NCBI GenBank assembly: GCA_964016885.1
Contig: OZ024742.1
Span: 221,154,001-221,218,000, forward strand
Reading direction: 5' to 3'
DNA from: Eledone cirrhosa
Lineage: Eukaryota
DNA: 64,000 nt
Both the position numbers and the translations under genes were made by a program. Below the pieces are notes generated by a model. That model was not told the DNA's origin, made no database searches, and saw only the letters and a program-made list of their open reading frames with translations. This document shows, piece by piece, positions 29,985 to 63,300 of this stretch (position 1 is the stretch's first letter; each line of letters starts with the position of its first letter).

Positions 29985-30076
29985 GTGTGCGGGCTTAGCC
30001 GTGTGGTTACTTCGATACATAATACTGAAATTATTTCTCCAATCTGCGACCACTGGCGCCATTCCGCGCACTTTTT
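29985..30076 (+). ncRNA. vault RNA-like Pol III gene, type A (copy 1)
   Basis: Sequence GTGTGCGGG-CTTAGCCGTGTGGTTACTTCGA...CGACCACTGGCGCCAT-TCCGCGCAC-TTTTT. The A-box-like TAGCCGTGTGG is followed by TTACTTCG, as in human vtRNA (TTAGCTCAGCGGTTACTTCG...GAGACCCGCGGGCGCT, recalled). There is a 9-bp terminal stem, inner helices GCC/GGC and GTGGTT/GACCAC, a T5 terminator and TATATAT at -29. Confidence 0.8.
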
Positions 30077-30418
30077 GGCCTTGTTTTACATAGTGACTTT
30101 AAAGATTTAACCTTTTTTGTTTGTTTGTATCCCTACATAACATCTAGCTATATTTGAGAGAAATTTGTTTACTATATCGCCAGCTGATGGAGACTCATTA
30201 CATAGTGACTTTTCTCTATGACTCATTAACCTACGTATCAACAAGTCCTGCACATCTAATCGAATTATTTCCCTATTACAAATTTTATGCGTCATTTGAA
30301 AAAAAATTATCTTCTCTCAATATACTTGTTCTTATGAAAAAGAAAAGAAAAGAAAAGTTCTTTTGAATACAATTTGAAATCATTTGTGATACTATAACAT
30401 AATATAACATTTATACAG

Positions 30419-30426
30419 TATATATA
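30419..30426 (+). promoter_or_regulatory. TATA-like element at -29 of the type B RNA gene
   Basis: TATATATA begins 29 nt upstream of the predicted +1 and is retained in all B and C copies. Confidence 0.5.
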
Positions 30427-30447
30427 GTTAATTTGTTAATACCAGTT

Positions 30448-30550
30448 GGGTGTGGGAGCTTAGCCGTGTGGTTACTTCGTTCATACCTAATATCTAAGCA
30501 GATGTTTTCAAACCTAACGACCACTGGCGCTGTCTCGTACATTCTTTTTT
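30448..30550 (+). ncRNA. vault RNA-like Pol III gene, type B (copy 1)
   Basis: Sequence GGGTGTGGGAG-CTTAGCCGTGTGGTTACTTCG...TTTCAAACC (B-box-like)...CGACCACTGGCGCTGT-CTCGTACATTC-T6. The terminal stem differs in sequence from type A but still pairs. TATATATA lies at -29. Confidence 0.8.
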
Positions 30551-32190
30551 GTCCCTTAAGCGCTGTCTCGTACATTCATTTTTGTCCCTTAAGCACCATC
30601 GTCACAAATTATTTTATATTTTATTTTCAGCAACTCACCACTTCAATATTTTCTGTGTATCGATAAGGCGTCAGATAACGATTTGCGGCATAGTTATCTC
30701 CCTTTACGTTTTGAGTTCAAATCCAGACTAGGTTAAGCTTTACCTTTCATCCTTACAGAGTCGATACAATAAAATATCGGTAACTCACTGGCGTCGATTT
30801 AATCGATTTCGCCACAAAATTGTTGGTCTTGTACCTAAATCAGAAACCATTATTATTTTAAAATGAGTTCAAATCAGCCAAGATCAGCTTTGCTTTTCAT
30901 CCTTCCGGGACCAATTAAGTAAAGTACAAGTTATGAACTGGTTTGACATTATCGAACTTCCCCTTCAAATTACAGGCCTTGTGTCTAAACTAGAAGGGGC
31001 GCAGCCCAAACACTGCCCTGCCCTAGTGACTTCATTTTTGCAATTCTACTGTTTGTTTGTGTGTGTCTGTATGTGGTAATGGTGTTCTGCTCTTGATTGT
31101 AAGATCATGAGTTCAATTCCCTGTGATATGTGTCCTTGTACAAAATACTTTATTTCACGCTGCTCCACCTGGCAAAATCAAGTTGTACTTGTCATTCAAA
31201 GAGCCCCATCACACTGAATCTCCCTGAGAGCTATGTTAATAGCACACGTGTCCATGGATTACTCAGCTACTTGCATGTTAATTTCATCTGCAGGCTGTTC
31301 CGTTGGTCGAACAGTTGGAGCACCCATCGTCGGAACCGACAGAGGCCCAACAGCAGCAATAGTGCATGTGTGTGTGTGTGTGTGTAATGCCTGGCTCTTT
31401 ATTGATTTGTTACTTTTGTAAACCATAAACATATGATTTGATACACACCATATGCTTGTAGCTTGAACGTGACAAAACGAAGGGAGCCATCAATATTATA
31501 AAAATAGTCATATTCTTGGGATAAATCCAAATGTGATACCACTAAGTAATTTCATTTGGCCTTGATAGACTAGCTAGCCCTGTGCCACCAAACATGATGG
31601 CTAATTGTAGTATTTTGTTTAATAATTCTTTTATTATAAACTTTTTTGTGTGGATAGACTATCCACAACTAACATAGATAACCAAGATAATATATTTGTG
31701 TGAATATCTATACATTTATGTATATGTATGGTCCTGAGTTGTAGGGATGCCGTATTGATATACTACATTTTTTGAACATTTGAAGCCTACCGGAACCCAT
31801 CCCTCTCCAGGACTGAGTACAGTAGATTTATTCAAGAGCGAGGAAGAATTGACACAAGTACTAGACTGGTACTTCTTTTACCGACCTCAAAAGGATGAAA
31901 CTCGGCGCGATTTGAACTCAGAGAACAGAAAGCCGGAACAAATTCCATAAAGCTTCCTATCCGACGTTCTGATGACTCTGCCAATTCGCTGCTTTTATCT
32001 ATACATTTATATGTATGAGTATAAAATATAAACACACAAACACATATACACTCATACAAATATAGATATATTCACACAAACACATATTCACACGCATACA
32101 TTCACACAAGTGATATAAACACATAAAAAATAACATCATCATCATCATCATCATCGTTTAACATCTATCTTCCACGCTAGCAGAAAGCCG

Positions 32191-33151
32191 GTAATATCAC
32201 TTGAGAGTATTGGGTGCATCTTATTGTGGCACCAGTAATATCACTTTACAGAGTATTGAGAGCATCTTATTGTGGCACCAGTAATATCACTTTACAGAGG
32301 ATTGGATGCATCTTATTGTGGCACCCATAATATCACTTTATAAGAGTATTGCGAGCATTTAATTGTGGCACCAGTAATATCACTTTACAGAGTATTGGGA
32401 GCATCTTATTGTGGCACCAGTAATATCACTTTACAGAGTATTGGGAGCATCTTATTATGGCACCAGTAATATCACTCTACAGAGTATTGGGAGCATCTTA
32501 TTATGGCACCAGTAATATCACTCTACAGAGTATTGGGAGCATCTTATTATGGCACCAGTAATATCACTTTAAGAGAGTATTGGGTGCATCTTATTGTGGC
32601 ACCAGCAATATCACTTTACGAGAGTATTGGGTGCATCCTATTGTGGCACCCATAATATCACTTTACAGAGTATTGGGTGCATCTTATTGTGGCACCCATA
32701 ATATCACTTTACAGAGTATTGGGTGCATCTTATTGTGGTACCAGCAATATCACTTTACAAGAGTATTGGGTGCATCTTATTGTGGCACCCATAATATCAC
32801 TTTACAGAGTATTGGGTGCATCTTATTGTGGCACCAGTAATATCACTTTACAAGAGTATTGGGTGCATCTTATTGTGGCACCCATAATATCACTTTACAA
32901 GAGTATTGGGAGCATCTTATTGTGGCACCAGCAATATCACTTTACAGAGTATTGGGTGCATCTTATTGTGGCACCAGTAATATCACTTTACGAGAGTATT
33001 GGGTGCATCTTATTGTGGCACCAGTAATATCACTTAACGAGTCTATCAGGTGCATCTTATTGTGGCACCAGTAATATCACTTTACGAGAGTATTGGGTGC
33101 ATCTTATTGTGGCACCAGTAATATCACTTTACAAGAGTATTGGGTGCATCT
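32191..33151. repeat. 46-bp satellite array (about 21 copies)
   Basis: Unit GAGTATTGGGTGCATCTTATTGTGGCACCAGTAATATCACTTTACA. Confidence 0.97.
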
Positions 33152-33958
33152 CGCTCGATTTTGCTGGCAAATAATTATCTTTCCTTGTTTTTTCTGAACC
33201 TCTTAGATGCTCGAAATCGACTCTTTTCCGGATTAGGGTTAGTTAGGGTTTCTGTTTTACGCGGAGGAAGGGGGAGGGGCAATTACGAGCATCTTAGAGG
33301 TCAGATTAGTTGATAGCAAAAAAAAAATAAAGAGGTGATACAATTATTTCCGACCAAACGTGAGAGGTGTGTACATCTGCGAAACTCCGACGGTCTTTTC
33401 ACCCCCTTTTCACTCCCATTTGTCTACAGATCTGGTTACCTATTGGTTTGGAGGTCATATTCGTCGATAACAAGCAAAAAAAAAAAAAAAAAAAGAGAAA
33501 ACTCCGAGGATGTGGGAGGAGCACCAATCCTCCGAGCATCTTAGAAGTTAGATTAGTTGATAGCACACGATTAAAAACAACAACAAACGAGGAAAAAATG
33601 TTTTTTGCCACTGAGATCCAGGGAGTGTTTTATAAATTTACAATAATATTAACCAGGGTAATGTTATAGGTTGTCTATAGGAAGGTAATGACATTTCTAC
33701 AATTATAAAAATGCGAAAAACCAAAACACGCACGCACGGACCCACACATAGATACATACAATTACATTTAATCAACATAATGACAGTTATGAGAAAGTTA
33801 TGAGGAAATAGAAACGAAAAATAGATATTTAAAGACGAAACTATATTTACGTGTCATTAATATAACGTACATATATATATATATATATTGTTATATTTTA
33901 AAGAGGGTCATGTTGTTATAATATTGCAATATATATGTTATTTTCTACATCAATATCT

Positions 33959-34050
33959 GTGTGCGGGCTTAGCCGTGTGGTTACTTCGATACATAATACT
34001 GAAATTATTTCTCCAATCTGCGACCACTGGCGCCATTCCGCGCACTTTTT
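33959..34050 (+). ncRNA. vault RNA-like gene, type A (copy 2)
   Basis: Same sequence as 29985-30076, in the second copy of the unit. Confidence 0.8.
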
Positions 34051-34412: not shown

Positions 34413-34515
34413 GGGTGTGGGAGCTTAGCCGTGTGGTTACTTCGTTCATACCTAATATCTAAGCAGATGTATTCAAGCCCAACGACCACTGGCGCTGTCT
34501 CGTACATTCTTTTTT
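34413..34515 (+). ncRNA. vault RNA-like gene, type B (copy 2)
   Basis: Near-identical to 30448-30550, with substitutions confined to the variable loop (GTATTCAAGCCC). Confidence 0.8.
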
Positions 34516-37002: not shown

Positions 37003-37722
37003 TTACACAGAATACAGGGTGCATCTTATTGTGCAACCAGCAATATCACTTTTTGAGACTATTGGGAGCATCTTATTGTGGATCCAGTAATATTACTTTA
37101 CAGAGTATTAGGTGCATCTTATTGTGGCACCAGTAATATCACTTTACAGATTATTGGGTGCATTTTATTGTGGCACCAGTAATACCACTTTACGAAAGTA
37201 TTGGGTGCATCTTATTGTGGCACCAGTAATATCACTTTACAGAGTATTGGGTGCATCTTATTGTGGCACCAGTAATATCACTTTACAGAGTATTGCGTTC
37301 ATCTTATTGTGGCACCAGTAATATCACTTTACAAGAGTATTGGGTGCATCTTATTGTGGCACCAGTAATATCACTTTACAGAGTATTGGGTGCATCTTAT
37401 TGTGGCACCAGCAATATCACTTTACGAGAGTATTGAGTGCATCTTATTGTGGCACCCATAATATCACTTTACAGAGTATTGCGTTCATCTTATTGTGGTA
37501 CCAGCAATATCACTTTACGAGAGTATTGTGTGCATCTTAATGTGGCACCAGTAATATCACTTTACAGAGTATTGGGTGCATCTTATTGTGGCACCAGCAA
37601 TATCACTTTACAGAGTATTGTGTGCATCTTATTGTGGCACCCATAATATCACTTTACAGAGTATTGCGTTCATCTTATTGTGACACCAGCAATATCACTT
37701 TACGAGAGTATTGGGTGCATCT
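37003..37722. repeat. 46-bp satellite array (about 15 copies) growing out of a SINE body
   Basis: Preceded by TTGGATGCCCTTTTAAATGCTAACCACCTTACA, and the first monomers are the most diverged. Confidence 0.95.
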
Positions 37723-39861
37723 CGCTCTATTTTGGTGGGAAATAATTATCTTTCCTTGTTTTTTCTGAACCTTAAAGATTTAACCCTTTTTTGTTTGTTT
37801 GTATCCCTACATAACATCTAGCTATATTTGAGAGAAATTTGTTTACTATATCGCCAGCTGATGGAGACTCATTACATAGTGACTTTTCTCTATGGCTCAT
37901 TAACCTACGTATCAACAAGTCCTGCACATCTAATCGAATTATTTCCCTATTACAAATTGTATGCGTCATTTGAAAAAAATTATCTTCTCTCAATATACTT
38001 GTTCTTATGAAAAAGAAAAGAAAAGAAAAGTCCTTTTGAATACAATTTGAAATCATTTGTGATACTATAACATAATATAACATTTATACAGTATATATAG
38101 TTAATTTGTTAATATGTGTTTGGTGTGGGAGCTTAGCCGTGTGGTTACTTCGTTTATACTTAAGAACTATCCAAATGTTTTCAAAGCTAACGACTACTGG
38201 CGCTGTCTCGTACATTCATTTTTGTCCCTTAAACAAATTTATCACCACCATCGTCACAAATTATTTTATTTTCAACAACTCACCACTTCAATATTTTCTG
38301 TGTATCGATAAGGCGTCAGATAACGATTTGCGGTATAGTTATCTCCCTTTACGTTTTGATTTCAAATGCAGTCTAGGTTAAGCTTTACCTTTCATCCTTA
38401 CAGAGTCGATAAAATAAAGTATCGGTAACTCACTAGCGTCGATTTAATCGATTTCCTCACAAAAATGTTGGTCTTGTACCTAAATCAGAAACCATTATTA
38501 TTTTAAAATGAGTTCAAATCAGCCAAGATCAGCTTTGCTTTTCATCCTTCCGGGACCAATTAAGTAAAGTACAAGTTATGAACTGGTTTGACATTATCGA
38601 ACTTCCCCTTCAAATTACAGGCCTTGTGTCTAAACTAGAAGGGGTGCAGCCCAAACACTGCCCTGCCCTATGCCCAGAGCCCATCACCCTCTCCTTCTTC
38701 TGTGGTCAAAAGTCTTTGCTTTTTTCCTTCTTTTCCTCTTAACTATGGCATTTATAGTCCTTTCCTCTACTTTCCCATACAACTAGATCTGCCCTTTTTT
38801 TTACCCCTTCCCTTTTTTCTCATTACTTTTGTTTTTATCTTTCCTTTTCATATTTCCATCATTGTATAACTTATTTTTTATTTGTATATAAATATTTGTG
38901 TATTATTGGTGCTCTATACAGAATATATTAATCTCTAATCCCAAAATTATATGTTAGCATATAAAAAGAATGTTCTAGTTTATTTCTATAGTGACTTGAT
39001 TTTTGCAATTCTACTGTTTGTTTGTGTGTGTCTGTATGTGGTAATGGTGTTCTGCTCTTGATTGTAAGATCATGAGTTCAATTCCCTGTGATATGTGTCC
39101 TTGTACAAGATACTTTATTTAACGCTGCTCCACCTGGCAAAATCAAGTTGTACTTGTCATTCAAAGGGCCCCATCACACTGAATCTCCCTGAGAGCTATG
39201 TTAACAGCACACGTGTCCATGGATTACTCAGCTACTTGCATGTTAATTTCATCTGCAGGCTGTTCCGTTGGTCGAACAGTTGGAGCACCCATCGTCGGAA
39301 CCGACAGAGGCCCAACAGCAGCAATAGTGCATGTGTGTGTGTGTGTGTGTGTAATGCCTGGCTCTTTATTGATTTGTTACTTTTGTAAACCATAAACATA
39401 TGATTTGATACACACCATATGCTTGTTGCTTGAACATGACAAAACGAAGGGAGCCATCAATATTATAAAAATAGTCATTATTCTTGGGATAAATCCAAAT
39501 GTGATACGACAACGTAATTTCATTCGGCTCTGATAAACTAGCTAGCACTGTGCCACCAAAAATGATGGCTAATTGTAGTATTTTGTTTAATAAGACAACA
39601 GAAAGCCGGAACAAATTCCATAAAGCTTTCTATCCGACGTTCTAATGACTCTGCCAATTCACTGCTTTTATCTATATATTTATATGTATGAGTATAAAAT
39701 ATAAACACACAAACACATACACTCATACAAATATAGATATGTTCACACAAACACATATTCATATTCACATGCATACATTCACACAAGTGATATAAACACA
39801 TAAAAACTAACATCATCATCATCATCGTTTAAAATCTATCTTCCACGCTAGCAGAAAGCCG
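37718..39861 (+). repeat. amplified unit copy 3, unique part
   Basis: Lacks the roughly 0.87-kb segment containing the type A gene (junction CTGAACC|TTAAAGATTT) and has a further deletion of about 300 bp near 39592. Confidence 0.9.
38122..38223 (+). ncRNA. vault RNA-like gene, type C (B-related, copy 1)
   Basis: Sequence GGTGTGGGAGCTTAGCCGTGTGGTTACTTCG, a diverged loop, then CGACTACTGGCGCTGTCTCGTACATTCATTTTT. The C>T change keeps pairing as G-U. Confidence 0.75.
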
Positions 39862-42800
39862 GTAATATCACTTTAGAGTATTGGGTGCATCTTATTGTGG
39901 CACCAGTAATATCACTTTACACGAGTATTGGGTGCATCTTATTGTGGCACCAGTAATATCACTTAAGAGTATTGGGTGCATCTTATTGTGGGCACCAGTA
40001 ATATCACTTTACAGAGTATTGTGTGCATCTTATTGTGGCACCAGTAATATCACTTTACGAGAGTATCGGGTGCATCTTATATGTGACACCAGTAATATCA
40101 CTTTACGAGAGTATTGGGTGCATCTTATTGTGGAACCAGTAATATCACTTTACAGAGTATTGGGTGCATCTTATTGTGGCACCAGTAATATCACTTTACG
40201 AGAGTATTGGGTGCATCTTATATGTGCCACCAGTAATATCACTTTACAGACTATTAGGTGCATCTTATTGTGGCACCAGTAATATCACTTTAGAGTATTG
40301 GGTGCATCTTATTGTGGCACCAGTAATATCACTTTAGAGTATTGGGAGCATCTTATTGTGGCATCAGTAATATCACATTACAGAGTATTGGGAGCATCTT
40401 ATTGTGGCACCAGTAATATCACTTTACAGAGGATTGGGTGCATCTTATTGTGGCACCAGTAATATCACTTTAGAGTATTGGGTGCATCTTATTGTGGCAC
40501 CAGTAATATCACTTTAGAGTATTGGGTGCATCTTATTGTGGCATCAGTAATATCACTTTACAGAGTATTGGGAGCATCTTATTGTGACACCAGTAATATC
40601 ACTTTACAGAGGATTGGGTGCATCTTATTTTGATACCAGTAATATCACTTTACAGAGTATTGGGTGCATCTTATTTTGGCACCAGCAATATCACTTTACG
40701 AGAGTATTGGGTGCATCTTATTGTGGCACCAGTAATATCACTTTACGAGAGTATTGGGTGCATCTTATTGTGGCACCAGTAATATCACTTTACAGAGGAT
40801 TGGGTGCATCTTATTTTGATACCAGTAATATCACTTTACAGAGTATTGGGTGCATCTTATTTTGGCACCAGTAATATCACTTTACAGAGTATCGGGTGCA
40901 TCTTATTGTGACACCAGTAATATCACTTTACAAGAGTATTGGGTGCATCTTATATGTGACACCAGTAATATCACTTTAGAGTATTGGTTGCTTCTTATTG
41001 TGGCACCAGTAATATCACTTTACAGAGTATTGAGTGCCTCTTATTGTGGCACCAGTAATATCACTTTACAGAGGATTGGGTGCATCTTATTTTGATACCA
41101 GTAATATCACTTTACGAGAGTATTGGGTGCATCTTATTGTGGCACCAGTAATATCACTTTACAGAGTATTGGGTGCATCTTATTGTGGCACCAGTAATAT
41201 CACCTTACGAGAGTATTGGGTGCATTTATATGTGACACCAGTAATATCACTTTAGAGTATTGGTTGCTTCTTATTCTTGCACCAGTAATATCACTTTACA
41301 GAGTATTGAGTGCCTCTTATTGTGGCACCAGTAATATCACTTTACAGAGGATTGGGTGCATCTTATTTTGATACCAGTAATATCACTTTACGAGAGTCTT
41401 GGGTGCATCTTATATGTGACGCCAGTAATATCACTTTACAGAGTATTGGGTGCATCTTATTGTGGCACCAGTAATATCACTTTACAGAGTATTGGTTGCT
41501 TCTTATTTTGGCACCAGTAATATCACTTTACGAGAGTATTGGGTGCATCTTATTGTGGCACCAGCAATATCACTTTACAGAGTATTGAGTGCATCTTATT
41601 GTGGCACCAGTAATATCACTTTACAGAGTATTGGGTGCATCTTATTGTGGGACCAGTAATATCACTTTACATAGTATTGGGTGCATCTTATTTTGGCACC
41701 AGTAATATCTCTTTACAGAGTATTGAGTGCATCTTATTGTGGCACCAGTAATATCACTTTACAAGAGTATTGGGTGCATCTTATTGTGGCACCAGCAATA
41801 TCACTTTACAGAGTATTGGGTGCTTCTTATTGTGGCACCAGTAAAATCACTTAACGAGTCTATCAGGTGCATCTTATTGTGGCACCAGCAATACCACTTT
41901 ACAGAGAATTGGGTGCCTCTTATTGTGGGACCAGTAATATCATTTACAGGGGATTGGGTGCATCTTATTGTGGCACCAGTAATATCACTTTACAGGACTA
42001 TTGGGAGCATCTTATTGTGGCACCAGTAATATCACTTTACGAGACTATTGGGTGCATCTTATTGTGGCACCCATAATATCACTTTACAGAGTATTAGGTG
42101 CACCTTATTGTGGCACCAGTAATATCACTTTACAGAGTATTGGGAGCATCTTATTGTGGCATCAGTAATATCACTTTACAGAGTATTGGGTGCATCTTAT
42201 TGTGGCACCAGTAATATCACTTAACGAGTCTATCAGGTGCATCTTATTGTTGCACCAGTAATATCACTTTACAGAGTATTGGGAGCATTTTATGTTGCAC
42301 CAGCAATACCACTTTACATAGAATTGGGTGCATCTTATTGTGGCACCAGTAATATCACTTTAAGAGAGTATTGAGAGCATCTTATTTTGGCACCAGTAAT
42401 ATCACTTTACAGAGTACGAGGTGCATCTTATTGTGTCATCAGTAATATCACTTTACAGAGTATTGGGTGCATCTTATTGTGGCATCAGCAATATCACTTT
42501 ACATGACTATTGGGAGCATGTTATTGTGGGACCAGTAATATCACTTTACGAGAGTATTGGGTGCATCTTATTGTGGCACCAGTAATATCACTTTATAGAG
42601 AATCGGGTGCATCTTATTGTGGCACCAGTAATATCACTTTACAGAGGATTGGGTGCATCTTATTATGGCACCAGTAATATCACTTTACAGAGTATTGGGT
42701 GCATCTTATTGTGAAACCAGTAATATCACTCTACGAGAGTATTGGGTGCATTTTATTGTGGCACCAGTAATATCACTTTACAGAGTATTGGGTGCATCTT

Positions 42801-48800: not shown

Positions 48801-51800
48801 ATCTTATCTTGGCACCAGTAATATCACTTTACAGAGTATTGAGTGCATCTTATTGTGGCACCAGTAATATCACTTTACAAGAGTATTGGGTGCATCTTAG
48901 TGTGGCACCAGCAATATCACTTTACAGAGTATTGGGTGCATCTTATTGTGGCACCAGTAAAATCACTTAACGAGTCTATCAGGTGCATCTTATTGTGGCA
49001 CCAGTAATATCACTTTACAGAGTATTGGGAGCATCTTATTGTGGCACCAGCAATACCACTTTACAGAGAATTGGGTGCCTCTTATTGTGGGACCAGTAAT
49101 ATCACTTTACAGGGGATTGGGTGCATCTTATTGTGGAACCAGTAATATCACTTTACAGGACTATTGGGAGCATCTTATTGTGGCACCAGTAATATCACTT
49201 TACGAAACTATTGGGTGCATCTTATTGTGGCACCCATAATATCACTTTACAGAGTATTAGGTGCACCTTATTGTGGCACCAGTAATATCACTTTACAGAG
49301 TATTGTGAGCATCTTATTGTGGCATCAGTAATATCACTTTACAGAGTATTGGGTACATCTTATTGTGGCACCAGCAATATCACTTTACAGGGTATTGGGT
49401 GCATCTTATTGTGGCGCCAGTAATATCTCTTAATGAGACTATAGGGTGCATCTTATTGTGGGACCAGCAATATCACTTTACAGAGTATTGGGTGCATCTT
49501 ATTGTGGCACCAGTAATATCACTTAATGAGACTATAGGGTGCATCTTATTGTGGCACCAGTAATATCACTTTACAGAGTATTGGGTGCATCTTATTGTGG
49601 CATCAGTAATGCCACTTTACAGAGTATTGGGTGCATCTTATTGTGGCACCAGTAATATCCCTTTACAGAGTATAGGGTGCATCTTATTGTGTCACCAGTA
49701 ATATCACTTTACGAGAGTATTGGGTGCATCTTATTGTGGCACCAGTAATATCACTTTACAGAGTATTGGGTGCATCTTATTGTGGCACCAGTAAGCTCAC
49801 TTTGCAGAGTATTGGGTGCACCTTATTGTGGCACCAGCAATATCACTTTACAGAGTATTGGGTGCATCTTATTGTGGCACCAGTAATATCACTTTACAGA
49901 GTATTGGGTGCATCTTATTGTGGCACCAGTAACTTCACTTTAGAATATTGGGTGCATCTTATTGTGGCACCAGTAATATCACTTTACAGAGGATTGGGTG
50001 CATCTTATTGTGGCACCAGCAATATCACTTTACAGAGTATTGGGTGCATCTTATTTTGGCACCAGTAATATCACTTTACGAGAGTATTGGGAGCATCTTA
50101 TTGTGGCACCAGCAATATCACTTTACAGAGTATTGGGTGCATCTTATTTTGGCACCAGTAATATCACTTTACGAGAGTATTGGGAGCATCTTATTGTGGC
50201 ACCAGTAATATCACTTTACGAGAGTATTGAGTGCATCTTATTGTGGGACCAGTGATATCACTTTACAGAGTATTGGGTGCATCTTATTGTGGCACCAGCA
50301 ATATCACTTTACAGAGTATTGGGTGCATCTTATTGTGGCACCAGTAAAATCACTTAACGAGTCTATCAGGTGCATCTTACTGTGGCACCAGTAATATCAC
50401 TTTACAGAGTATTGGGAGCATCTTATTGTGGCACCAGCAATACCACTTTACAGAGAATTGGGTGCCTCTTATTGTGGGACCAGTAATATCACTTTACAGG
50501 GGATTGGGTGCATCTTATTGTGGCACCAGTAATATCACTTTACAGGACTATTGGGAGCATCTTATTGTGGCACCAGTAATATCACTTTACGAGACTATTG
50601 GGTGCATCTTATTCTGGCACCCATAATATCACTTTACAGAGTATTAGGTGCACCTTATTGTGGTACCAGTAATATCACTTTACAGAGTATTGGGAGCATC
50701 TTATTGTGGCATCAGTAATATCACTTTACAGAGTATTGGGTGCATCTTATTGTGGCACCAGTAATATCACTTCACAGAGTATTGGGTGCATCTTATTGTG
50801 GCGCCAGTAATATCTCTTAATGAGACTATAGGGTGCATCTTATTGTGGGTCCAGCAATATCACTTTACAGAGTATTGGGTGCATCTTATTGTGGCACCAG
50901 TAATATCACTTAATGAGACTATAGGGTGCATCTTATTGTGGCACCAGTAATATCACTTTACAGAGTATTGTGTGCATCTTATTGTGGCATCAGTAATGCC
51001 ACTTTACAGAGTATTGGGTGCATCTTATTGTGGCACCAGAAATATCCCTTTACAGAGTATAGGGTGCATCTTATTGTGTCACCAGTAATATCAATTTACG
51101 AGAGTATTGGGTGCATCTTATTGTGGCACCAGTAACATCACTTTACAGAGTATTGGGTGCATCTTATTGTGGCACCAGTAAGCTCACTTTACAGAGTATT
51201 GGGTGCACCTTATTGTGGCACCAGCAATATCACTTTACAGAGTATTGGGTGCATCTTATTGTGGCACCAGTAATATCACTTTACAGAGTATTGGGTGCAT
51301 CTTATTGTGGCAACAGTAACTTCACTTTAGAATATTGGGTGCATCTTATTGTGGCACCAGTAATATCACTTTACAGAGGAATGTGGTGCATCTTATTGTG
51401 CCACCAGCAATATCACTTTACAGAGTATTGGGTGCATCTTATTTTGGCACCAGTAATATCACTTTACGAGAGTATTGGGTGCATCTTATTGTGGCACCAG
51501 CAATATCACTTTACAGAGTATTGGGTGCATCTTATTTTGGCACCAGTAATATCACTTTACGAGAGTATTGGGAGCATCTTATTGTGGCACCAGTAATATC
51601 AAATTACGAGAGTATTGAGTGCATCTTATTGTGGCACCAGTAATATCACTTTACAGAGTATTGGGTGCATCTTATTGTGGCACCAGTAATATCATTTTAC
51701 GAGAGTAATGGGTGCATCTTATTGTGGCACCAGTAATATCACTTTACAGAGTATTGGGTGCATCTTATTGTGGCACCAGTAATATCACTTTACGAGAGTA

Positions 51801-54800
51801 TTGGGTGCATCTTATTGTGGCACCAGTAATATCCCTTCATAGAGAATTGGGTGCATCCTATTGTGACACCAGTAATATCGCTTTACAGAGGATTGGGTGC
51901 ATCTTATTGTGGCACCAGCAATATCACTTTACAGAGTATTGGGTGCATCTTATTGTGGCACCAGTAATATCATTTTACGAGAGTATTGGGTGCATCTTAT
52001 TGTGGCACCAGTAATATCACTTTACAGAGTATTGGGTGCATCTTATTGTGGCACCAGTAATATCACTTTACGAGAGTATTGGGTGCATCTTATTGTGGCA
52101 CCAGTAATATCCCTTCATAGAGAATTGGGTGCATCCTATTGTGACACCAGTAATATCGCTTTACAGAGGATTGGGTGCATCTTATTGTGGCACCAGCAAT
52201 ATCACTTTACAGAGTATTGGGTGCATCTTATTGTGGCACCAGTAATATCATTTTACGAGAGTATTGGGTGCATCTTATTGTGGCACCAGTAATATCACTT
52301 TACAGAGTATTGGGTGCATCTTATTGTGGCACCAGTAATATCACTTTACGAGAGTATTGGGTGCATCTTATTGTGGCACCAGTAATATCCCTTCATAGAG
52401 AATTGGGTGCATCCTATTGTGACACCAGTAATATCGCTTTACAGAGGATTGGGTGCATCTTATTGTGGCACCAGCAATATCACTTTACAGAGTATTGGGT
52501 GCATCTTATTGTGGCACCAGTAATATCACTTTAAGAGAGTATTGAGAGCATCTTATTATGGCACCAGTAATATCACTTTACAGAGTACGAGGTGCATCTT
52601 ATTGTGTCATCAGTAATATCACTTTACAGAGTATTGGGTGCATCTTATTGTGGCATCAGCAATATCACTTTACATGACTATTGGGAGCATGTTATTGTGG
52701 CACCAGTAATATCACTTTACGAGAGTATTGGGTGCATCTTATTGTGGCACCAGTAATATCACTTTATAGAGAATCGGGTGCATCTTATTGTGGCACCAGT
52801 AATATCACTTTACAGAGGATTGGGTGCATCTTATTATGGCACCAGTAATATCACTTTACAGAGTATTGGGTGCATCTTATTGTGGCACCAGTAATATCAC
52901 TTTACAGAGTATTGGGTGCATCTTATTGTGGCACCAGTAATATCACTTTACAGAGGATTGGGTGCCTCTAATTGTGGCACCAGTAATATCACTTTACAGA
53001 GGATTGGATGCATCTTATTGTGGCACCAGTAATATCAATTTACAGAGTATTGGGTGCCTCTAATTGTGGGACCAGTAATATCACTTTACAGAGGATTGGG
53101 TGCATCTTATTGTGGCACCAGTAATATCACTTTACAGAGTATTGGGTGCATCTTATTGTGGCACCAGTAATATCACTTTACACGAGTATTGGGTGCATCT
53201 TATTGTGGGACCAGTAATATCACTTTACAGAGGATTGGGTGCATCTTATTGTGGCACCAGTAATATCACTTTACAGAGTATTGGGTGCATCTTATTGTGG
53301 CACCAGTAATATCACTTTACAGAGGATTGGATGCATCTTGTGGTGGCACCAGTAATATCACTTTACAGAGTATTGGGTGCCTCTAATTGTGGGACCAGTA
53401 ATATCACTTTACAGAGGATTGGGTGCATCTTATTGTGGCACCAGCAATATCACTTTACAGAGTATTGGGTGCATCTTATTTTGGCACCAGTAATATCACT
53501 TTACGAGAGTATTGGGTGCATCTTATTGTGGCACCAGCAATATCACTTTACAGAGTATTGGGTGCATCTTATTTTGGCACCAGTAATATCACTTTACGAG
53601 AGTATTGGGAGCATCTTATTGTGGCACCAGTAATATCACTTTACGAGAATATTGAGTGCATCTTATGGTGGCACCAGTAATATCACTTTACAGAGTATTG
53701 GGTGCATCTTATTGTGGCACCAGTAATATCACTTTACGAGAGTATTGGGTGCATCTTATTGTGGCATCAGCAATATCACTTTACAGAGTATTGAGTGCAT
53801 CTTATTGTGGCACCAGTAATATCACTTTACAGAGTATTGGGTGCATCATATTGTGGCACCAGTAATATCACTTAACGAGTCTATCAGGTGCATCTTATTG
53901 TTGCACCAGTAATATCACTTTACAGAGCATTGGGAGCATCTTATTGTTGCACCAGCAATACCACTTTACATAGAATTGGGTGCATCTTATTGTGGCACCA
54001 GTAATATCACTTTAAGAGAGTATTGAGAGCATCTTATTATGGCACCAGTAATATCACTTTACAGAGTACTAGGTGCATCTTATTGTGTCATCAGTAATAT
54101 CACTTTACAGAGTATTGGGTGCATCTTATTGTGGCACCAGCAATATCACTTTACGAGAGTATTGAGTGCATCTTATTGTGGCACCAGTAATATCACTTTA
54201 CGAGAGTATTGGGTGCATCTTATTGTGGCACCAGTAATATCACTTTATAGAGAATTGGGTGCATCCTATTGTGACACCAGTAATATCACTTTACAGAGGA
54301 TTGGGTGCATCTTATTGTGGCACCAGCAATATCACTTTACAGAGTATTGGGTGCATCTTATTTTGGCACCAGTAATATCACTTTACGAGAGTATTGGGTG
54401 CATCTTATTTTGGCACCAGTAATATCACTTTACGAGAGTATTGGGTGCATCTTATTGTGGCACCAGTAATATCACTTTATGAGAGTATTGAGTGCATCTT
54501 ATTGTGGCACCAGTAATATCACTTTACATGAGTCTTGGGTGCATCTTATTGTGGCACCAGCAATATCACTTTACAGAGTATTGAGTGCATCTTATTGTGG
54601 CACCAGTAATATCACTTTACAGAGTATTGGGTGCATCTTATTGTGGCACCAGTAATATCACTTAACGAGTCTATCAGGTGCATCTTATTGTTGCACCAGT
54701 AATATCACTTTACAGAGTATTGGGAGCATTTTATGTTGCACCAGCAATACCACTTTACATAGAATTGGGTGCATCTTATTGTGGCACCAGTAATATCACT

Positions 54801-56163
54801 TTAAGAGAGTATTGAGAGCATCTTATTATGGCACCAGTAATATCACTTTACAGAGTACGAGGTGCATCTTATTGTGTCATCCGTAATATCACTTTACAGA
54901 GTATTGGGTGCATCTTATTGTGGCATCAGCAACATCACTTTACATGACTATTGGGAGCATGTTATTGTGGCACCAGTAATATCACTTTACGAGAGTATTG
55001 GGTGCATCTTATTGTGGCACCAGTAATATCACTTTATAGAGAATCGGGTGCATCTTATTGTGGCACCAGTAATATCACTTTACAGAGGATTGGGTGCATC
55101 TTATTATGGCACCAGTAATATCACTTTACAGAGTATTGGGTGCATCTTATTGTGAAACCAGTAATATCACTCTACGAGAGTATTGGGTGCATTTTATTGT
55201 GGCACCAGTAATATCATTTTACAGAGTATTGGGTGCATCTTATTGTGGCACCAGTAATATCACTTTACAGAGTATTGGGTGCATCTTATTGTGGCACCAG
55301 TAATATCACTTTACAGAGGATTGGGTGCCTCTAATTGTGGCACCAGTAATATCACTTTACAGAGTATTGAGTGCATCTTATTTTGGCACCAGTAATATCA
55401 CTTTACAGAGGATAGGATGCATCTTATTGTGGCACCAGTAATATCACTTTACAGAGTATTGGGTGCCTCTAATTGTGGGACCAGTAATATCACTTTACAG
55501 AGGATTCGGTGCATCTTATTGTGGCACCAGTAATATCACTTTACAGTGTATTGGGTGCATCTTATTGTGGCACCAGTAATATCACTTTACAGAGTATTGT
55601 AAGCCTCTAATTGTGGGACCAGTAATATCACTTTACAGAGGATTGGGTGCATCTTATTGTGGCACCAGTAATATCACTTTACAGAGTATTGGGTGCATCT
55701 TATTGTGGCACCAATAATATCACTTTACAGAGTATTGGGTGCATCTTATTGTGGCACCAGTAATATCACTTTACACGAGTATTGGGTGCATCTTATTGTG
55801 GGACCAGTAATATCACTTTACAGAGGATTGGGTGCATCTTATTGTGGCACCAGTAATATCACTTTACAGAGTATTGGGTGCATCTTATTGTGGCACCAGT
55901 AATATCACTTTACAGAGTATTGGGTGCATCTTATTGTGGCACCAGTAATATCACTTTACAGAGTATTGGGTGCATGTTATTGTGGTACCAGTAATATCAC
56001 TTTACAGAGTATTGGGTGCATCTTATTGTGACACCAGCAATATCACTTTACGAGAGTATTGGGTGCATCTTATTGTGGCACCAGTAATATCACTTTACAG
56101 TGTATTGGGTGCATCTTATTGTGGCACCAGCAATATAACTTTACGAGAGTATTGGGTGCATCT
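39862..56163. repeat. 46-bp satellite array, about 16.3 kb (about 350 copies), with higher-order repeats
   Basis: Continuous 44-47-bp monomers, with variant patterns recurring at offsets of 4438, 1387 and 278 bp. Confidence 0.97.
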
Positions 56164-59100
56164 CTCTCGATTTTGGTGGGAAATAATTATCTTTCCTTGT
56201 TTTTTCTGAACCTTAAAGATTTAACCCTTTTTTGTTTGTTTGTATCCCTACATAACATCTAGCTATATTTGAGAGAAATTTGTTTACTATATCGCCAGCT
56301 GATGGAGACTCATTACATAGTGACTTTTCTCTATGGCTCATTAACCTACGTATCAACAAGTCCTGCACATGTAATCGAATTATTTCCCTATTACAAATTG
56401 TATGCGTCATTTGAAAAAAAATTACCTTCTCTCAATATACTTGTTCTTATGAAAAAGAAAAGAAAAGAAAAGTCCTTTTGAATACAATTTGAAATCATTT
56501 GTGATACTATAACATAATATAACATTTATACAGTATATATAGTTAATTTGTTAATATGTTTTTGGTGTGGGAGCTTAGCCGTGTGGTTACTTCGTTTATA
56601 CTTAAGAACTATCCAAATGTTTTCAAAGCTAACGACTACTGGCGCTGTCTCGTACATTCATTTTTGTCCCTTAAGCAAATTTATCACCACCATCGTCACA
56701 AATTATTTTATTTTCAACAACTCACTACTTCAATATTTTCTGTGTATCGATAAGGCGTCAGATAACGATTTGCGGTATAGTTATCTCCCTTTACCTTTTG
56801 ATTTCAAATCCAGTCTCGGTTAAGCTTTACCTATCATCCTTACAGAGTCGATAAAATAAAGTATCGGTAACTCACTGGCGTCGATTTAATCGATTTCCTC
56901 ACAAAAATGTTGGTCTTGTACCTAAATCAGAAACCATTATTATTTTAAAATGAGTTCAAATCAGCCAAGATCAGCTTTGCTTTTCATCCTTCCGGGACCA
57001 ATTAAGTAAAGTACAAGTTATGAACTGGTTTGACATTATCGAACTTCCCCTTCAAATTACAAGCCTTGTGTCTAAACTAGAAGGGGCGCAGCCCAAACAC
57101 TGCCCTGCCCTATGCCCAGAGCCCATCACCCTCTCCTTCTTCTGTGGTCAAAAGTCTTTGCTTTTTTCTTTCTTTTCCTCTTAACTATGGCATTTATAGT
57201 CCTTTCCTCTACTTTCCCATACAACTAGATCTGCCCTTTTTTTTACCCCTTCCCTTTTTTCTCATTACTTTTGTTTTTATCTTTCCTTTTCATATTTCCA
57301 TCATTGTATAACATATTTTTTATTTGTATATAAATATGTGTGTATTATTGGTGTTCTATACAGAATATATTAATCTCTAATCCCAAAATTATATGTTAGC
57401 ATATAAAAAGACTGTTCTAGTTTATTTCTATAGTGACTTGATTTTTGTAATTCTACTGTTTGTTTGTGTGTGTTTGTATGTGGTAATGGTGTTCTGCTCT
57501 TGATTGTAAGATCATGAGTTCAATTCCCTGTGATATGTGTCCTTGTACAAGATACTTTATTTAACGCTGCTCCACCTGGCAAAATCAAGTTGTACTTGTC
57601 ATTCAAAGGGCCCCATCACACTGAATCTCCCTGAGAGCTATGTTAACAGCACACGTGTCCATGGATTACTCAGCTACTTGCATGTTAATTTCATCTGCAG
57701 GCTGTTCCGTTGGTCGAACAGTTGGAGCACCCATCGTCGGAACCGACAGAGGCCCAACAGCAGCAATAGTGCATGTGTGTGTGTGTGTGTGTGTAATGCC
57801 TGGCTCTTTATTGATTTGTTACTTTTGTAAACCATAAACATATGATTTGATACACACCATATGCTTGTTGCTTGAACATGACAAAACGAAGGGAGCCATC
57901 AATATTATAAAAATAGTCATTATTCTTGGGATAAATCCAAATGTGATACCACTAAGTAATTTCATTTGGCCTTGATAGACTAGCTAGCCCTGTGCCACCA
58001 AAAATGATGGCTAATTGTAGTATTTTGTTTAATAATTCTTTTATTATAAACTTTTTTGTGTGGATAGACTATCCACAACTAACATAGATAACCAAGATAA
58101 TATATTTGTGTGAATATCTATACATTTATGTATATGTATGGTCCTGAGTTGTAGGGATGCCGTATTGATATACTACATTTTTTGAACATTTGAAGCCTAC
58201 CGGAACCCATCCCTCTCCAGGACTGAGTACAGTAGATTTATTCAAGAGCGAGGAAGAATTGACACAAGTACTAGACTGGTGCTTCTTTTACCGACCTCAA
58301 AAGGATGAAACTCGGCGCGATTTGAACTCAGAGAACAGAAAGCCGGAACAAATTCCATAAAGCTACCGATCCGACGTTCTGATGACTCTGCCAATTCGCT
58401 GCTTTTATCTATACATTTATATGTATGAGTATAAAATATAAACACACAAACACATATACACTCATACAAATATAGATATATTCACACAAACACATATTCA
58501 CACGCATACATTCACACAAGTGATATAAACACATAAAAACTAACATCATCATCATCATCATCGTTTAACATCTATCTTCCACGCTAGCAGAAAGCCGGTA
58601 ATATCACTTTAGAGTATTGGGTGCATCTTATTGTGGCACCAGTAATATCACTTTACAAAGTATTGCGAGCATCTTATTGTGGCACCAGTAATATCACTTT
58701 ACAAGGGTATTGGGAGCATCTTATTGTGGCACCAGTAATATTACTTTACAGAGTATTGGGTGCATCTTATTGTGGCGCCAGTAATATCACTTTACAGAGG
58801 ATTGGGTGTATCTTATTGTGGCACCAGTAATATCACTTTAGAGTATTGGGTGCATCTTATTGTGGCACCAGCAATATCACTTTACAGAGTATTGGGTGCA
58901 TCTTATTGTGGCACCAGTAATATCACTTTACAGAGTATTGGGTGCATCGTATTGTGGCACCAGCAATACCACTTTACAGAGAATTGGGTGCCTCTTATTG
59001 TGGCGCCAGTAATATCACTTTACAGAGGATTGGGTGCATCTTATTGTGGCACCAGTAATATCATTTTACGAGACTATTGGGTGCATCTTATTGTGGCACC

Positions 59101-60327
59101 CATAACATCACTTTACAGAGTATTGGGTGCACCTTATTGTGGCACCAGTAATATCACTTTACAGAGTATTGGGAGCATCTTATTGTGGCATCAGTAATAT
59201 CACTTTACAGAGTATTGGGTGCATCTTATTGTGGCACCAGTAATATCACTTTACAGAGTATTGGGTGCATCTAATTGTGGCACCAGTAATATCACTTTAC
59301 AGAGTATTGGGTGCATCTTATTGCGGCACCAGTAATATCACTTTACAGAGTATTGGGTGCACCTTATTGTGGCACCAGCAATATCACTTTACAGAGTATT
59401 CGGTGCATCTTATTGTGGCACCAGTAATATCACTTTACAGAGTATTGGTTGCCTCTAATTGTGGGACCAGTAATATCACTTTACAGAGGATTGGGTGCAT
59501 GTTATTGTGGCACCAGTAATATCACTTTACAGAGTATTGGGTGCATCTTATTGTGGCACCAGTAATATCACTTTACAGAGTATTGGGTGCATCTTATTGT
59601 GGCACCAGTAATATCACTTTACAGAGTATTGGGTGCATCTTATTGTGGCACCAGTAATATCACTTTACAGAGTATTGGGTGCCTCTAATTGTCGGACCAG
59701 TAATATCACTTTACAGAGGATTGGGTGCATCTTATTGTAGTACCAGCAATATCACTTTATTAGAGTATTGGGTGCATCTTATTGTGGCACCATTAATATC
59801 ACTTTACAGAGTATTGGGAGCATCTTTTTGTGGCACCCATAATATCACTTTACAAGAGTATTGCGAGCATTTAATTGTGGCACCAGTAATATCACTTTAG
59901 AGTATTGGGTGCATCTTATTGTGGCACCAGTAATATCACTTTACAGAGGATTGGGTGCATCTTATTGTGGCACCAGTAATATCACTTTACAGAGGATTGG
60001 GTGCATCTTATTGTGGCACCAGTAATATCACTTTACAGAGTATTGGGTGCATCTTATTGTGGCACCAGTAATATCACTTTACAGAGTATTGGGTGCATCT
60101 TATTATGGCACCAGTAATATCACTTTACAGAGGATTGGGTGCATCTTATTGTCGCACCAGTAATATCACTTTACAGAGTATTGGGTGCATCTTATTGTGA
60201 CACCAGCAATATCACTTTACGAGAGTATTGAGTGCATCTTATTGTGGCACCAGTAATATCACTTTACAGTGTATTGGGTGCATCTTATTGTGGCACCAGC
60301 AATATAACTTTACGAGAGTATTGGGTG
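56159..60327 (+). repeat. amplified unit copy 4 (46-bp array at 58598-60331)
   Basis: Exact 4169-bp offset to copy 5 (e.g. ORFs 57537 and 61706). Confidence 0.93.
56564..56665 (+). ncRNA. vault RNA-like gene, type C (copy 2)
   Basis: Same sequence as 38122-38223. Confidence 0.75.
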
Positions 60328-63300
60328 CATCTCGCTCGATTTTGGTGGGAAATAATTATCTTTCCTTGTTTTTTCTGAACCTTAAAGATTTAACCCTTTT
60401 TTGTTTGTTTGTATCCCTACATAACATCTAGCTATATTTGAGAGAAATTTGTTTACTATATCGCCAGCTGATGGAGACTCATTACATAGTGACTTTTCTC
60501 TATGGCTCATTAACCTTCGTATCAACAAGTCCTGCACATCGAATCGAATTATTTCCCTATTACAAATTGTATGCGTCATTTGAAAAAAAATTATCTTCTC
60601 TCAATATACTTGTTCTTATGAAAAAGAAAAGAAAAGAAAAGTCCTTTTGAATACAATTTGAAATCATTTGTGATACTATAACATAATATAACATTTATAC
60701 AGTATATATAGTTAATTTGTTAATATGTGTTTGGTGTGGGAGCTTAGCCGTGTGGTTACTTCGTTTATACTTAAGAACTATCCAAATGTTTTCAAAGCTA
60801 ACGTCTACTGGCGCTGTCTCGTACATTCATTTTTGTCCCTTAAGCAAATTTATCACCACCATCGTCACAAATTATTTTATTTTCAACAACTCACCACTTC
60901 AATAATTTCTGTGTATCGATAAGGCGTCAGATAACGATTTGCGGTATAGTTATCTCCCTTTACCTTTTGATTTCAAATCCAGTCTAGGTTAAGCTTTACC
61001 TATCATCCTTACAGAGTCGATAAAATAAAGTATCGGTAACTCACTGGCGTCGATTTAATCGATTTCCTCACAAAAATGTTGGTCTTGTACCTAAATCAGA
61101 AACCATTATTATTTTAAAATGAGTTCAAATCAGCCAAGATCAGCTTTGCTTTTCATCCTTCCGGGACCAATTAAGTAAAGTACAAGTTATGAACTGGTTT
61201 GACATTATCGAAGTTCCCCTTCAAATTACAAGCCTTGTGTCTAAACTAGAAGGGGCGCAGCCCAAACACTGCCCTGCCCTATGCCCAGAGCCCATCACCC
61301 TCTCCTTCTTCTGTGGTCAAAAGTCTTTGCTTTTTTCTTTCTTTTCCTCTTAACTATGGCATTTATAGTCCTTTCCTCTACTTTCCCATACAACTAGATC
61401 TGCCCTTTTTTTTACCCCTTCCCTTTTTTCTCATTACTTTTGTTTTTATCTTTCCTTTTCATATTTCCATCATTGTATAACATATTTTTTATTTGTATAT
61501 AAATATGTGTGTATTATTGGTGTTCTATACAGAATATATTAATCTCTAATCCCAAAATTATATGTTAGCATATAAAAAGACTGTTCTAGTTTATTTCTAT
61601 AGTGACTTGATTTTTGTAATTCTACTGTTTGTTTGTGTGTGTTTGTATGTGGTAATGGTGTTCTGCTCTTGATTGTAAGATCATGAGTTCAATTCCCTGT
61701 GATATGTGTCCTTGTACAAGATACTTTATTTAACGCTGCTCCACCTGGCAAAATCAAGTTGTACTTGTCATTCAAAGGGCCCCATCACACTGAATCTCCC
61801 TGAGAGCTATGTTAACAGCACACGTGTCCATGGATTACTCAGCTACTTGCATGTTAATTTCATCTGCAGGCTGTTCCGTTGGTCGAACAGTTGGAGCACC
61901 CATCGTCGGAACCGACAGAGGCCCAACAGCAGCAATAGTGCATGTGTGTGTGTGTGTGTGTGTAATGCCTGGCTCTTTATTGATTTGTTACTTTTGTAAA
62001 CCATAAACATATGATTTGATACACACCATATGCTTGTTGCTTGAACATGACAAAACGAAGGGAGCCATCAATATTATAAAAATAGTCATTATTCTTGGGA
62101 TAAATCCAAATGTGATACCACTAAGTAATTTCATTTGGCCTTGATAGACTAGCTAGCCCTGTGCCACCAAAAATGATGGCTAATTGTAGTATTTTGTTTA
62201 ATAATTCTTTTATTATAAACTTTTTTGTGTGGATAGACTATCCACAACTAACATAGATAACCAAGATAATATATTTGTGTGAATATCTATACATTTATGT
62301 ATATGTATGGTCCTGAGTTGTAGGGATGCCGTATTGATATACTACATTTTTTGAACATTTGAAGCCTACCGGAACCCATCCCTCTCCAGGACTGAGTACA
62401 GTAGATTTATTCAAGAGCGAGGAAGAATTGACACAAGTACTAGACTGGTGCTTCTTTTACCGACCTCAAAAGGATGAAACTCGGCGCGATTTGAACTCAG
62501 AGAACAGAAAGCCGGAACAAATTCCATAAAGCTACCGATCCGACGTTCTGATGACTCTGCCAATTCGCTGCTTTTATCTATACATTTATATGTATGAGTA
62601 TAAAATATAAACACACAAACACATATACACTCATACAAATATAGATATATTCACACAAACACATATTCACACGCATACATTCACACAAGTGATATAAACA
62701 CATAAAAACTAACATCATCATCATCATCATCGTTTAACATCTATCTTCCACGCTAGCAGAAAGCCGGTAATATCACTTTAGAGTATTGGGTGCATCTTAT
62801 TGTGGCACCAGTAATATCACTTTACAAAGTATTGCGAGCATCTTATTGTGGCACCAGTAATATCACTTTACAAGGGTATTGGGTGCATCTTATTGTGGCA
62901 CCAGCAATATCACTTTACAGAGTATTGGGTGCATATTATTGTGACACCAGTAATATCACTTTACAGAGTATTGGGTGCATCTTATTGTGGCACCAGTAAT
63001 ATCACTTTACAGAGTATTGGATGCATCTTATTGTGGCACCAGTAATATCACTTTAGAGTATTGGGTGCATCTTATTGTGGCACCAGTAATATCACTTTAC
63101 AGAGTATTGGGTGCATCTTATTGTGGCGCCAGTAATATCACTTTACAGAGGATTGGGTGTATCTTATTGTGGCACCAGTAATATCACTTTAGAGTATTGG
63201 GTGCATCTTATTGTGGCACCAGCAATATCACTTTACAGAGTATTGGGTGCATCTTATTGTGGCACCAGTAATATCACTTTACAGAGTATTGGGTGCATCT

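Follow-up and report, generated by a model that had tools for sequence, protein, structure and literature searches.

The window, the 64,000-nt stretch of DNA analysed here, contains the first half of what is very probably a vault RNA cluster in a cephalopod of octopod type. Its 15 tandem genes fall into two types, and their transcripts, likely made by RNA polymerase III (Pol III), would be 90–100 nt panhandles predicted to bind TEP1 and to reside partly in vault particles. The array spans 67 kb and comprises 15 same-strand copies (four of type A and 11 of type B) interspersed with a 46-bp satellite. Seven copies, those of the original prediction, lie in the window and eight more in the 33 kb past its end.

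The seven cassettes had been placed at 29985, 30448, 33959, 34413, 38122, 56564 and 60733, and each of these positions is the first G of a terminal stem. The shared 5′ motif, the length of 92–103 nt and the T5–6 ending described for them are borne out in all seven: a 21-nt 5′ motif occurs seven times in the window, without mismatch and always on the + strand (0.00 expected, 100 shuffles), with the T run included, the cassettes measure 92 nt in type A and 102–103 nt in type B, and the T runs are T5 or T6. Scored with the Rfam covariance models, all seven reach 36.4–43.3 bits for RF00006 (gathering threshold 34), with matches that span model positions 1–99 and include both conserved blocks. Besides these cassettes, nothing in the window reaches any of the 4227 Rfam family thresholds.

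Only five distinct sequences, of two types, make up the seven window copies, all on the + strand. The type A genes at 29985..30076 (92 nt with T5; panhandle z −2.91, 0/200 shuffles as stable) and 33959..34050 have the same sequence, and each scores 43.3 bits. Type B1 is found at 30448..30550 (103 nt with T6, 41.4 bits, z −3.04, 3/200 shuffles) and, with three loop changes, at 34413..34515 (41.1 bits, z −1.92); in both, the 3′ end and terminator are repeated in a 33-bp tandem duplication (30527..30594, also 34492–34559, + strand). Type B2 occupies 38122..38223 (T5, 41.4 bits; z −1.43 and 17/200 shuffles, folded from 38121), 56564..56665 (same sequence, 41.4 bits) and 60733..60834. This last window copy is the only one to carry a 3′ block substitution, as had been noted; at 36.4 bits (z −0.45, 59/200 shuffles) it is the weakest and possibly a pseudogene. 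Judged by sequence, the window cassettes are genuine vault RNA-family genes.

A vault-model match could also arise through a shared A box if the cassettes headed a SINE or some other repeat of tRNA origin; dispersed copies do occur on nine other contigs, and one relic runs directly into a common repeat. We regard this explanation as highly improbable. In 3.0 Gb, the 20-nt 5′ motif at one mismatch or fewer has 23 matches, 15 of them in the cluster, while the 3′ motif has 17 matches genome-wide and the type C motif six at three mismatches. These searches, which rest on motif patterns and may miss more diverged copies, gave 25 places overall, 10 of them outside the cluster and mostly 5′-half relics. 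The SINE head was rejected on this copy number, since hundreds to thousands are expected of a SINE; the thousands of copies that the original prediction had named as its counter-case are not seen. In addition, no tRNA was called, the cassettes are followed by neither an A-tail nor a shared body, and the RF00006 match takes in both conserved blocks.

The dispersed 5′-half relics probably arose by reverse transcription; if so, the vault RNA genes were transcribed in the germ line. Seven dispersed 5′ halves match the parent at −10..−1 (0.6–0.9), with no parental match upstream (0.23–0.35) or beyond the loop (0.13–0.37), and a genome search with the 3′ pattern turned up no 3′ half standing by itself. 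Retrocopies of small structured RNAs truncated at the 3′ end (‘tailless’) are a known class. The relics, and the relics only, resemble these in beginning at the RNA 5′ end, stopping in an A/T-rich internal stretch and lacking parental flanks; unlike in clear tailless retrocopies, target-site duplications are mostly unclear, with (TA)n in 2/7, 6–8 bp candidates in 3/7 and none in 2/7. A type C copy on C4 scores 33.9 bits against the RF00006 cut-off of 34. The full-length type C copy lacks a TATA, yet most relics derive from type C.

All eight folded sequences pair 5′ with 3′ in a panhandle, and stability relative to shuffles is clear for types A and B1 and weak for B2 (z −1.43 and −0.45). When a 19-pair structure taken from type A was imposed on 11 sequences drawn from the three types (A, B and C), 94.3% of 209 cells were paired, versus 36–55% when it was slid. 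Covariation is thin: across the 11 sequences, one of the 19 pairs has changed on both sides and seven on one side, the pair score being reached by 18/500 shuffles and one two-sided pair by 398/500. The 5′ block is kept between types A and B (93% identical), whereas the flanks are only 63–65% identical, the level of the AT-rich background. The modelled folds show the potential of the 5′ and 3′ blocks to pair into a 90–100 nt panhandle around a variable loop. The TROVE domain of TEP1 would bind these paired blocks, and the loop, differing between paralogs, would stay free.

The candidate partners are present in the host genome. MVP repeat and shoulder exons lie on C24, in keeping with the earlier statement that molluscs have major vault protein, and C4 carries a TEP1-type gene, whose TROVE, DUF4062 and NTPase pieces share a strand and are arranged as in TEP1 (the DUF4062 and NTPase matches partly under the Pfam cut-off); both consist of exon pieces, with no full gene model. 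On these sequence matches, the host appears to encode both vault proteins. It also encodes seven-unit haemocyanins and has at least 121 protocadherin (PF08266) matches, from 150 scored of 255 candidates; both features point to a cephalopod, most likely an octopod, and, with the RF00006 match, agree with the proposed cephalopod vault RNA locus. The gnathostome VTRNA1 locus is linked to the protocadherin cluster and ZMAT2. Protocadherin linkage is not shared here despite the large expansion in the host, as none of the 121 matches (150 of 255 candidates scored) is on C3, the chromosome carrying the cluster, and no protocadherin-sized ORF was seen in the 334 kb around it.

Promoter and terminator signals suggest that the cluster RNAs are likely made by Pol III. 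A TATA-like box lies at −29, counted from a +1 predicted from the terminal stem: for type A at 29956..29963 and the equal place before 33959, and for type B at 30419..30426 and the equal places before 34413, 38121, 56563 and 60732 (all + strand). Across the cluster, it is at −29 in 14 copies and −27 in one, against a chance background of 2.2% per 5-nt slot, with upstream flanks that amount to two independent cases. The internal box A has one mismatch to the consensus in 13/15 copies, and an oligo-T terminator (T4–T6) directly follows the terminal stem in 15/15. Pol III would start at the first G of the stem, guided by the A box and upstream TATA, and would stop in the T run. The relics and the variable inner 5′ flank are at most indirect hints of a discrete Pol III transcript.

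The U6 genes of the genome have their TATA at the corresponding position: of five examined, three have it at −30 and the other two at −28 and −35. A U6-type (type 3) promoter was rejected for the cluster: the TATA is present, but the upstream element common to the U6 genes, which sits at −76 to −78 in three types of U6 upstream region, does not occur in the 400 nt next to any of the 15 copies, which leaves the promoter partly unexplained. Vertebrate vault RNAs have the B box at the 3′ block. Here, 0/15 copies have a perfect box B match; one-mismatch candidates occur at +26 (type A) and +56/+59 (type B), none inside the 3′ block, where there is a 3-nt gap relative to the RF00006 model. Box B is also barely conserved in Fasciola vault RNAs, as described in part of PMC8824774, and so is not a strict criterion for invertebrate vault RNAs. 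Similarity between the A and B upstream regions (1/300 shuffles) was set aside as a TA-repeat at unequal positions. CRE/TRE-like 7-mers at −160 to −257, in type B only, were not counted as evidence.

The gene copies sit in duplicated 2–4 kb units that are 93–99% identical, flanks included, with the satellite at their borders. In the window, the 46-bp satellite forms blocks at 32191..33151 (between gene units; 20.7 copies, 91% matches), 37017..37722 (15.2 copies), 39862..56163 (16 kb, 352.7 copies), 58598..60332 (37.7 copies) and 62767..64000 (26.9 copies, continuing past the window end). An exact-match comparison for a 4.4-kb satellite duplication was broken up by indels. Contigs from three runs of one sample, possibly the source of the assembly itself, cover 30/30 bins of 29100–39700 and carry no copy number.

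Unequal crossing-over between the satellite blocks bordering each unit is the likely route by which the array expanded, and a number of the young copies are thus probably passengers. A stronger version, in which only one or two ancestral genes are active and satellite-driven duplication has carried along most of the 15 as silent passengers, is a credible but less probable reading. It is favoured by the near-identity of the units including their flanks, by the small number of distinct sequences (10 in 15 copies), by the weak folding of B2, and by conserved-block changes with lower scores: 14/15 copies pass the RF00006 cut-off, the fifteenth (72882) scoring 30.8 bits, and the 80546 copy (34.1 bits) and the 60732 and 65083 copies (36.4 bits) are low. 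Against it, the TATA and a T run of 4–6 are kept in 15/15 copies and the A box, at one mismatch, in 13/15; the −40..−21 zone has 0/20 variable sites among the 11 type B copies, which is not significant (p 0.24). This reading is compatible with the vault RNA family call and differs solely in the number of working copies.

Among the 11 type B copies, the loop is more variable than the flanks (12/36 versus 40/404 sites, p 3e-4), and in one B1/B2 pair the identity is 79.5% for the loop and 97–98% for the flanks. Such divergence might suggest that these vault RNA-descended RNAs now act chiefly away from vaults, the loop of each paralog binding partners of its own; most mammalian vault RNA lies outside the particle (PMC3762200), and human vtRNA1-1 binds p62, according to part of PMC7058938. 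We consider this unlikely. Variability in type B is also raised over the 20 nt upstream of +1 (5/18 sites, p 0.03), a pattern that transcription-associated mutagenesis, described for Pol III genes (PMC6130373), predicts without any need of selection, and type A loops are invariant (0/33 sites in four copies). The fixed B1/B2 differences (8/36 in the loop versus 2/404 in the flanks) come from a partly circular test, since the loop itself was the basis for telling B1 from B2. More doubtful still is the proposal that octopods amplified a 15-gene array with a stripped promoter (A box and TATA, no B box or U6 element), in which the loop-distinct types A, B1 and B2 are kept apart amid spacer homogenisation since every loop has its own binding partner. 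Were it true, the array would be a natural test bed for vault RNA loop function; if loop variants are selected and bind different proteins, it would address the long-open question of what the loop is for.

The further claim that the locus extends vault RNAs to protostomes fails, because they are already known from molluscs and other protostomes: limpet, leech and flatworm vault RNAs are in Rfam, and the liver fluke has five (from parts of PMC2770079 and PMC8824774). Passages of Copeland 2009 (PMC2770079) state that two lophotrochozoan lineages have vault RNA homologs. In Fontenla 2022 (PMC8824774), vault RNAs of Lottia gigantea (mollusc) and Helobdella robusta (annelid) are used from RF00006, Macrostomum is named, and Fasciola hepatica has five expressed vault RNAs (vtRNA1–5), four of them within 133.3 kb. 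A published description of a cephalopod vault RNA was not found in the literature searched, a search partly diluted by loose terms.

With the vertebrate VTRNA1 cluster, as covered by RF00006 and excerpts of PMC7058938, the array has in common the 5′ block with A box and GGTTACTTCG, the 3′ block, the full-length model match, panhandle, variable loop and oligo-T end, and tandem paralogs with a composite promoter including upstream elements. It differs in copy number (15 versus 3+1 in human), in its satellite-laced units and in lacking both a canonical B box and, among the candidates scored, any protocadherin match on its chromosome. Lottia gigantea, Helobdella robusta, Macrostomum lignano and Fasciola hepatica belong to the same superphylum as the host, and Lottia to the same phylum; lophotrochozoan vault RNAs, from what PMC8824774 describes in part, share the box A and TTACTTCG motif, a B box that is weak at best and clustered paralogs, with Lottia compared by description. 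Unlike the Fasciola cluster in that source, the array has a cephalopod host and more copies in half the span, and expression is shown for the Fasciola genes and predicted for the array. TBsRNA-10 of Trypanosoma brucei, alike by description, is a Pol III transcript linked to both TEP1 and MVP, but is a single gene found by biochemistry (parts of PMC12547018 and PMC7916137); the trypanosome vault RNA co-purifies with MVP (PMC12547018), and it shows that the family long predates deuterostomes. With molluscs, annelids, flatworms and trypanosomes already included, the known range of vault RNAs is unmoved. The value of the locus is a clean cephalopod annotation that offers sequences of three types, a probable promoter and, in the retro-relics, a marker of the probable 5′ end. 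What sets it apart from the known systems is modest: its high copy number, a TATA at −29 without a clear B box, the lack of protocadherin linkage, and loops that diverge between paralogs far beyond their flanks.

The seven vault RNA copies in the window (starting at 29985, 30448, 33959, 34413, 38122, 56564 and 60733) all carry the 21-nt 5′ motif on the plus strand with no mismatches, and the motif was absent from shuffled sequences. The starts, lengths, T runs and last-copy substitution of the original prediction were all reproduced on re-measurement, and the covariance model that it proposed as a check, RF00006 (cut-off 34 bits), matched all seven copies over model positions 1–99 with 36.4–43.3 bits. 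No other Rfam family exceeded its own cut-off anywhere in the window, and a tRNA gene search of the window called none. Judged from sequence, the locus is a genuine cluster of vault RNA genes, and the genome is octopod-like; membership of the family is borne out by each sequence feature tested apart from box B.

The cluster continues beyond the window. Across the 2,996 Mb of the genome, a 20-nt pattern (up to one mismatch) has 23 matches; a single array on contig C3 accounts for 15 of these, and the following 80 kb downstream of the window holds eight further copies. The array spans 67 kb, from window position 29985 to about 97263, with all copies on one strand, and comprises four copies of sequence type A and 11 of type B (10 distinct sequences); a four-mismatch scan of 334 kb around it returned the same 15 copies and nothing more. 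All but one passed the RF00006 cut-off (14/15), the copy at 72882 scoring 30.8 bits. The gene-bearing units are 93–99% identical among themselves, with 46-bp satellite blocks in between, and the array probably grew by unequal crossing-over between these blocks. A 48-bp satellite at window positions 5188–9271 (85 copies) is ∼66% alike to the 46-bp satellite and has long stop-free frames on both strands.

The array flanks are mainly transposon remains. LTR-type retrotransposon remains lie on the minus strand at about 14800–17850 of the window, with gag-, protease-, RT- and RNase H-like pieces recognised by eye, and inverted repeats surround microsatellites at 13830–14156 (95%, 328 nt) and 9463–10529 (81%, ∼1.1 kb). 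The only host-gene candidate in the flanks is a putative exon ∼52 kb upstream of the array (L065:8294–8686, minus strand), which by eye resembles a homoserine/serine O-acyltransferase-like hydrolase and has no Pfam match.

In predicted folds, the 5′ and 3′ blocks pair in all eight sequences folded, with z-scores against shuffles of −2.91 for type A, −3.04 and −1.92 for B1, −1.43 and −0.45 for B2 (type B is divided by its loop), and −2.19 for type C. Nineteen pairs taken from the type A structure are paired in 94.3% of cells of an 11-sequence alignment, compared with 36–55% when slid, and one of the 19 is broken in all eight type B rows. One pair changed on both sides and seven on one side; 18 of 500 shuffles matched the pair score and 398 of 500 the two-sided pair count, and covariation support for the structure is thin.

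For promoter scoring, we assumed consensus motifs. Thirteen of the 15 copies carry box A with one mismatch, and all 15 end in a T4–T6 run. Relative to +1, the predicted first stem G, a TATA-like box lies at −29 in 14 copies and at −27 in one, against a background chance of 2.2% per 5-nt slot; three of five U6 genes examined in the same genome have TATA at −30. The upstream flanks of types A and B are unrelated (65% in a gapped AT-rich alignment, similar to 63% downstream), and the U6 element at −76 to −78, common to three U6 upstream types, is missing upstream of the vault RNA copies. The 3′ block holds no canonical box B, and one-mismatch candidates occur at differing positions in types A and B. 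Since vertebrate vault genes are described as using internal boxes and upstream elements together (PMC7058938), and box B is described as barely conserved in Fasciola vault RNAs (PMC8824774), we read the promoter here as a variation on a known theme. U6 snRNA genes also form a tandem array (G000:C19:31,780,605–31,840,331 of the genome assembly; 32 genes among the matches listed, spaced ∼1.8 kb apart), which holds a U6 variant that is altered in its 5′ stem; at six of 11 loci examined there, the upstream element is displaced ∼190 nt by other sequence, with TATA kept. In this genome, Pol III genes may generally be amplified in tandem.

Variation among the 11 type B copies is concentrated in the loop (12 of 36 sites, versus 40 of 404 in the flanks; p = 3 × 10−4) and just upstream of +1 (5 of 18 sites; p = 0.03), while the conserved blocks are no different from the flanks. 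In one B1/B2 pair, identity is 79.5% across the loop and 97–98% in the flanks, and fixed differences fall at 8/36 loop versus 2/404 flank sites between these classes, which are themselves defined by the loop. Type A loops are invariant (0/33 sites in four copies). The bolder reading of this divergence is that the loops are under selection. The simpler reading is that the excess in the loop and near +1 would reflect transcription-associated mutagenesis, under which active tRNA genes are reported to diverge ∼fourfold more in their inner 5′ flank (PMC6130373).

Pattern searches of the genome, which miss more diverged copies, found ten related places outside the array. These are one full-length type C copy (L022, C4:22,848,497, at 22.85 Mb; 33.9 bits with RF00006), a type B copy on C21 whose 5′ end is damaged, a short inner piece on C1, and seven dispersed 5′ halves. 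Identity of the seven 5′ halves to a parent is 0.6–0.9 over the 10 nt preceding box A, 0.23–0.35 further upstream and 0.13–0.37 beyond the loop, and comparison with each other revealed no common flanks. A 3′ pattern matched 17 places in the genome (the 15 array copies, the type C copy and the C21 copy), with no lone 3′ half. Reverse-transcribed, 3′-truncated copies have this look, the 5′ half being kept and parental flanks absent; the relics point indirectly to germ-line transcription in the past, with the RNA starting close to the predicted 5′ end. Most of the seven show no clear target-site duplications. Most dispersed relics derive from type C (L023–L027 and L100); the only full-length type C copy has no TATA and differs from its relics at two adjacent letters, and the gene that actually gave rise to them may have been lost or be absent from the assembly. 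A type A 5′-half relic (L021, C7:2,385,436) lies amid the C7 protocadherin genes (matches at 1.97–8.7 Mb), probably by chance, being one of ten dispersed places.

The molluscan haemocyanin domain has 39 matches in the genome. Grouped by position, these form five seven-unit genes on C1 (173.74–173.91 Mb) and C26 (21.93–22.02 Mb), and C27 has two weaker matches; two weak matches that contain stops were counted as first exons of a split unit. We take structures 4YD9 and 6R83 to be squid and the remaining entries, apart from 1JS8, to be gastropod. For the terminal unit on C1, 1JS8 gives 854.9 bits and 4YD9_C 738.3, and none of the listed units from the remaining entries exceeds 513.8. The C26 terminal unit scores nearly equally against the octopus and squid structures (650 versus 658.6 bits), which suggests an old paralog. 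Of 255 protocadherin candidates, 150 were scored, giving 121 N-terminal matches; almost every one lies in an open frame of ∼800–1000 aa, and they fit the protocadherin expansion of coleoids. 1JS8 is from Enteroctopus dofleini, and seven haemocyanin units are described for octopods and Nautilus as opposed to eight for squids and cuttlefish (PMC4491423); gastropod haemocyanin is also described with eight (PMC2881123). The seven-unit haemocyanins and the protocadherin matches fit an octopod, in line with the cephalopod host originally proposed, and an octopod is the best reading of these sequences.

Genes for vault proteins also appear to be present. MVP is represented on C24 by three shoulder exons and further repeat exons (37 of 122 frames of this region scanned for domains). 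One strand of C4 carries TROVE exons and, after them, DUF4062 in two pieces (30.4 and 22.5 bits; cut-off 24.7) and NTPase in one (22.7 bits; cut-off 27.1), with 80 of 283 frames scanned; this order would be that expected of TEP1, whose architecture we in part assumed. A second TROVE locus, on C10, is presumably Ro60. A TROVE domain is described for TEP1 (PMC3762200), and DUF4062 is likewise described for it in the literature.

The human vault RNA cluster is described as lying between ZMAT2 and the protocadherins (PMC7058938), whereas none of the 121 protocadherin matches (150/255 candidates scored) is on the array's contig. Co-purification of vault RNA with MVP is reported for trypanosomes (PMC12547018; also PMC7916137). 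No description of a cephalopod vault RNA was found in the literature searched, most subscription papers being outside its scope; routine genome annotation has probably already labelled cephalopod orthologs, because the stock Rfam model suffices to detect the genes described here. The proposal that the locus extends vault RNA to protostomes is not new. Homologs in two lophotrochozoan lineages are noted by Copeland 2009, citing Mosig 2009 (PMC2770079), and Fontenla 2022 drew Lottia and Helobdella vault RNAs from RF00006, named Macrostomum, and reported five expressed genes in Fasciola, four of them inside 133.3 kb (PMC8824774). The array is an additional locus of a family whose presence in protostomes is already known.
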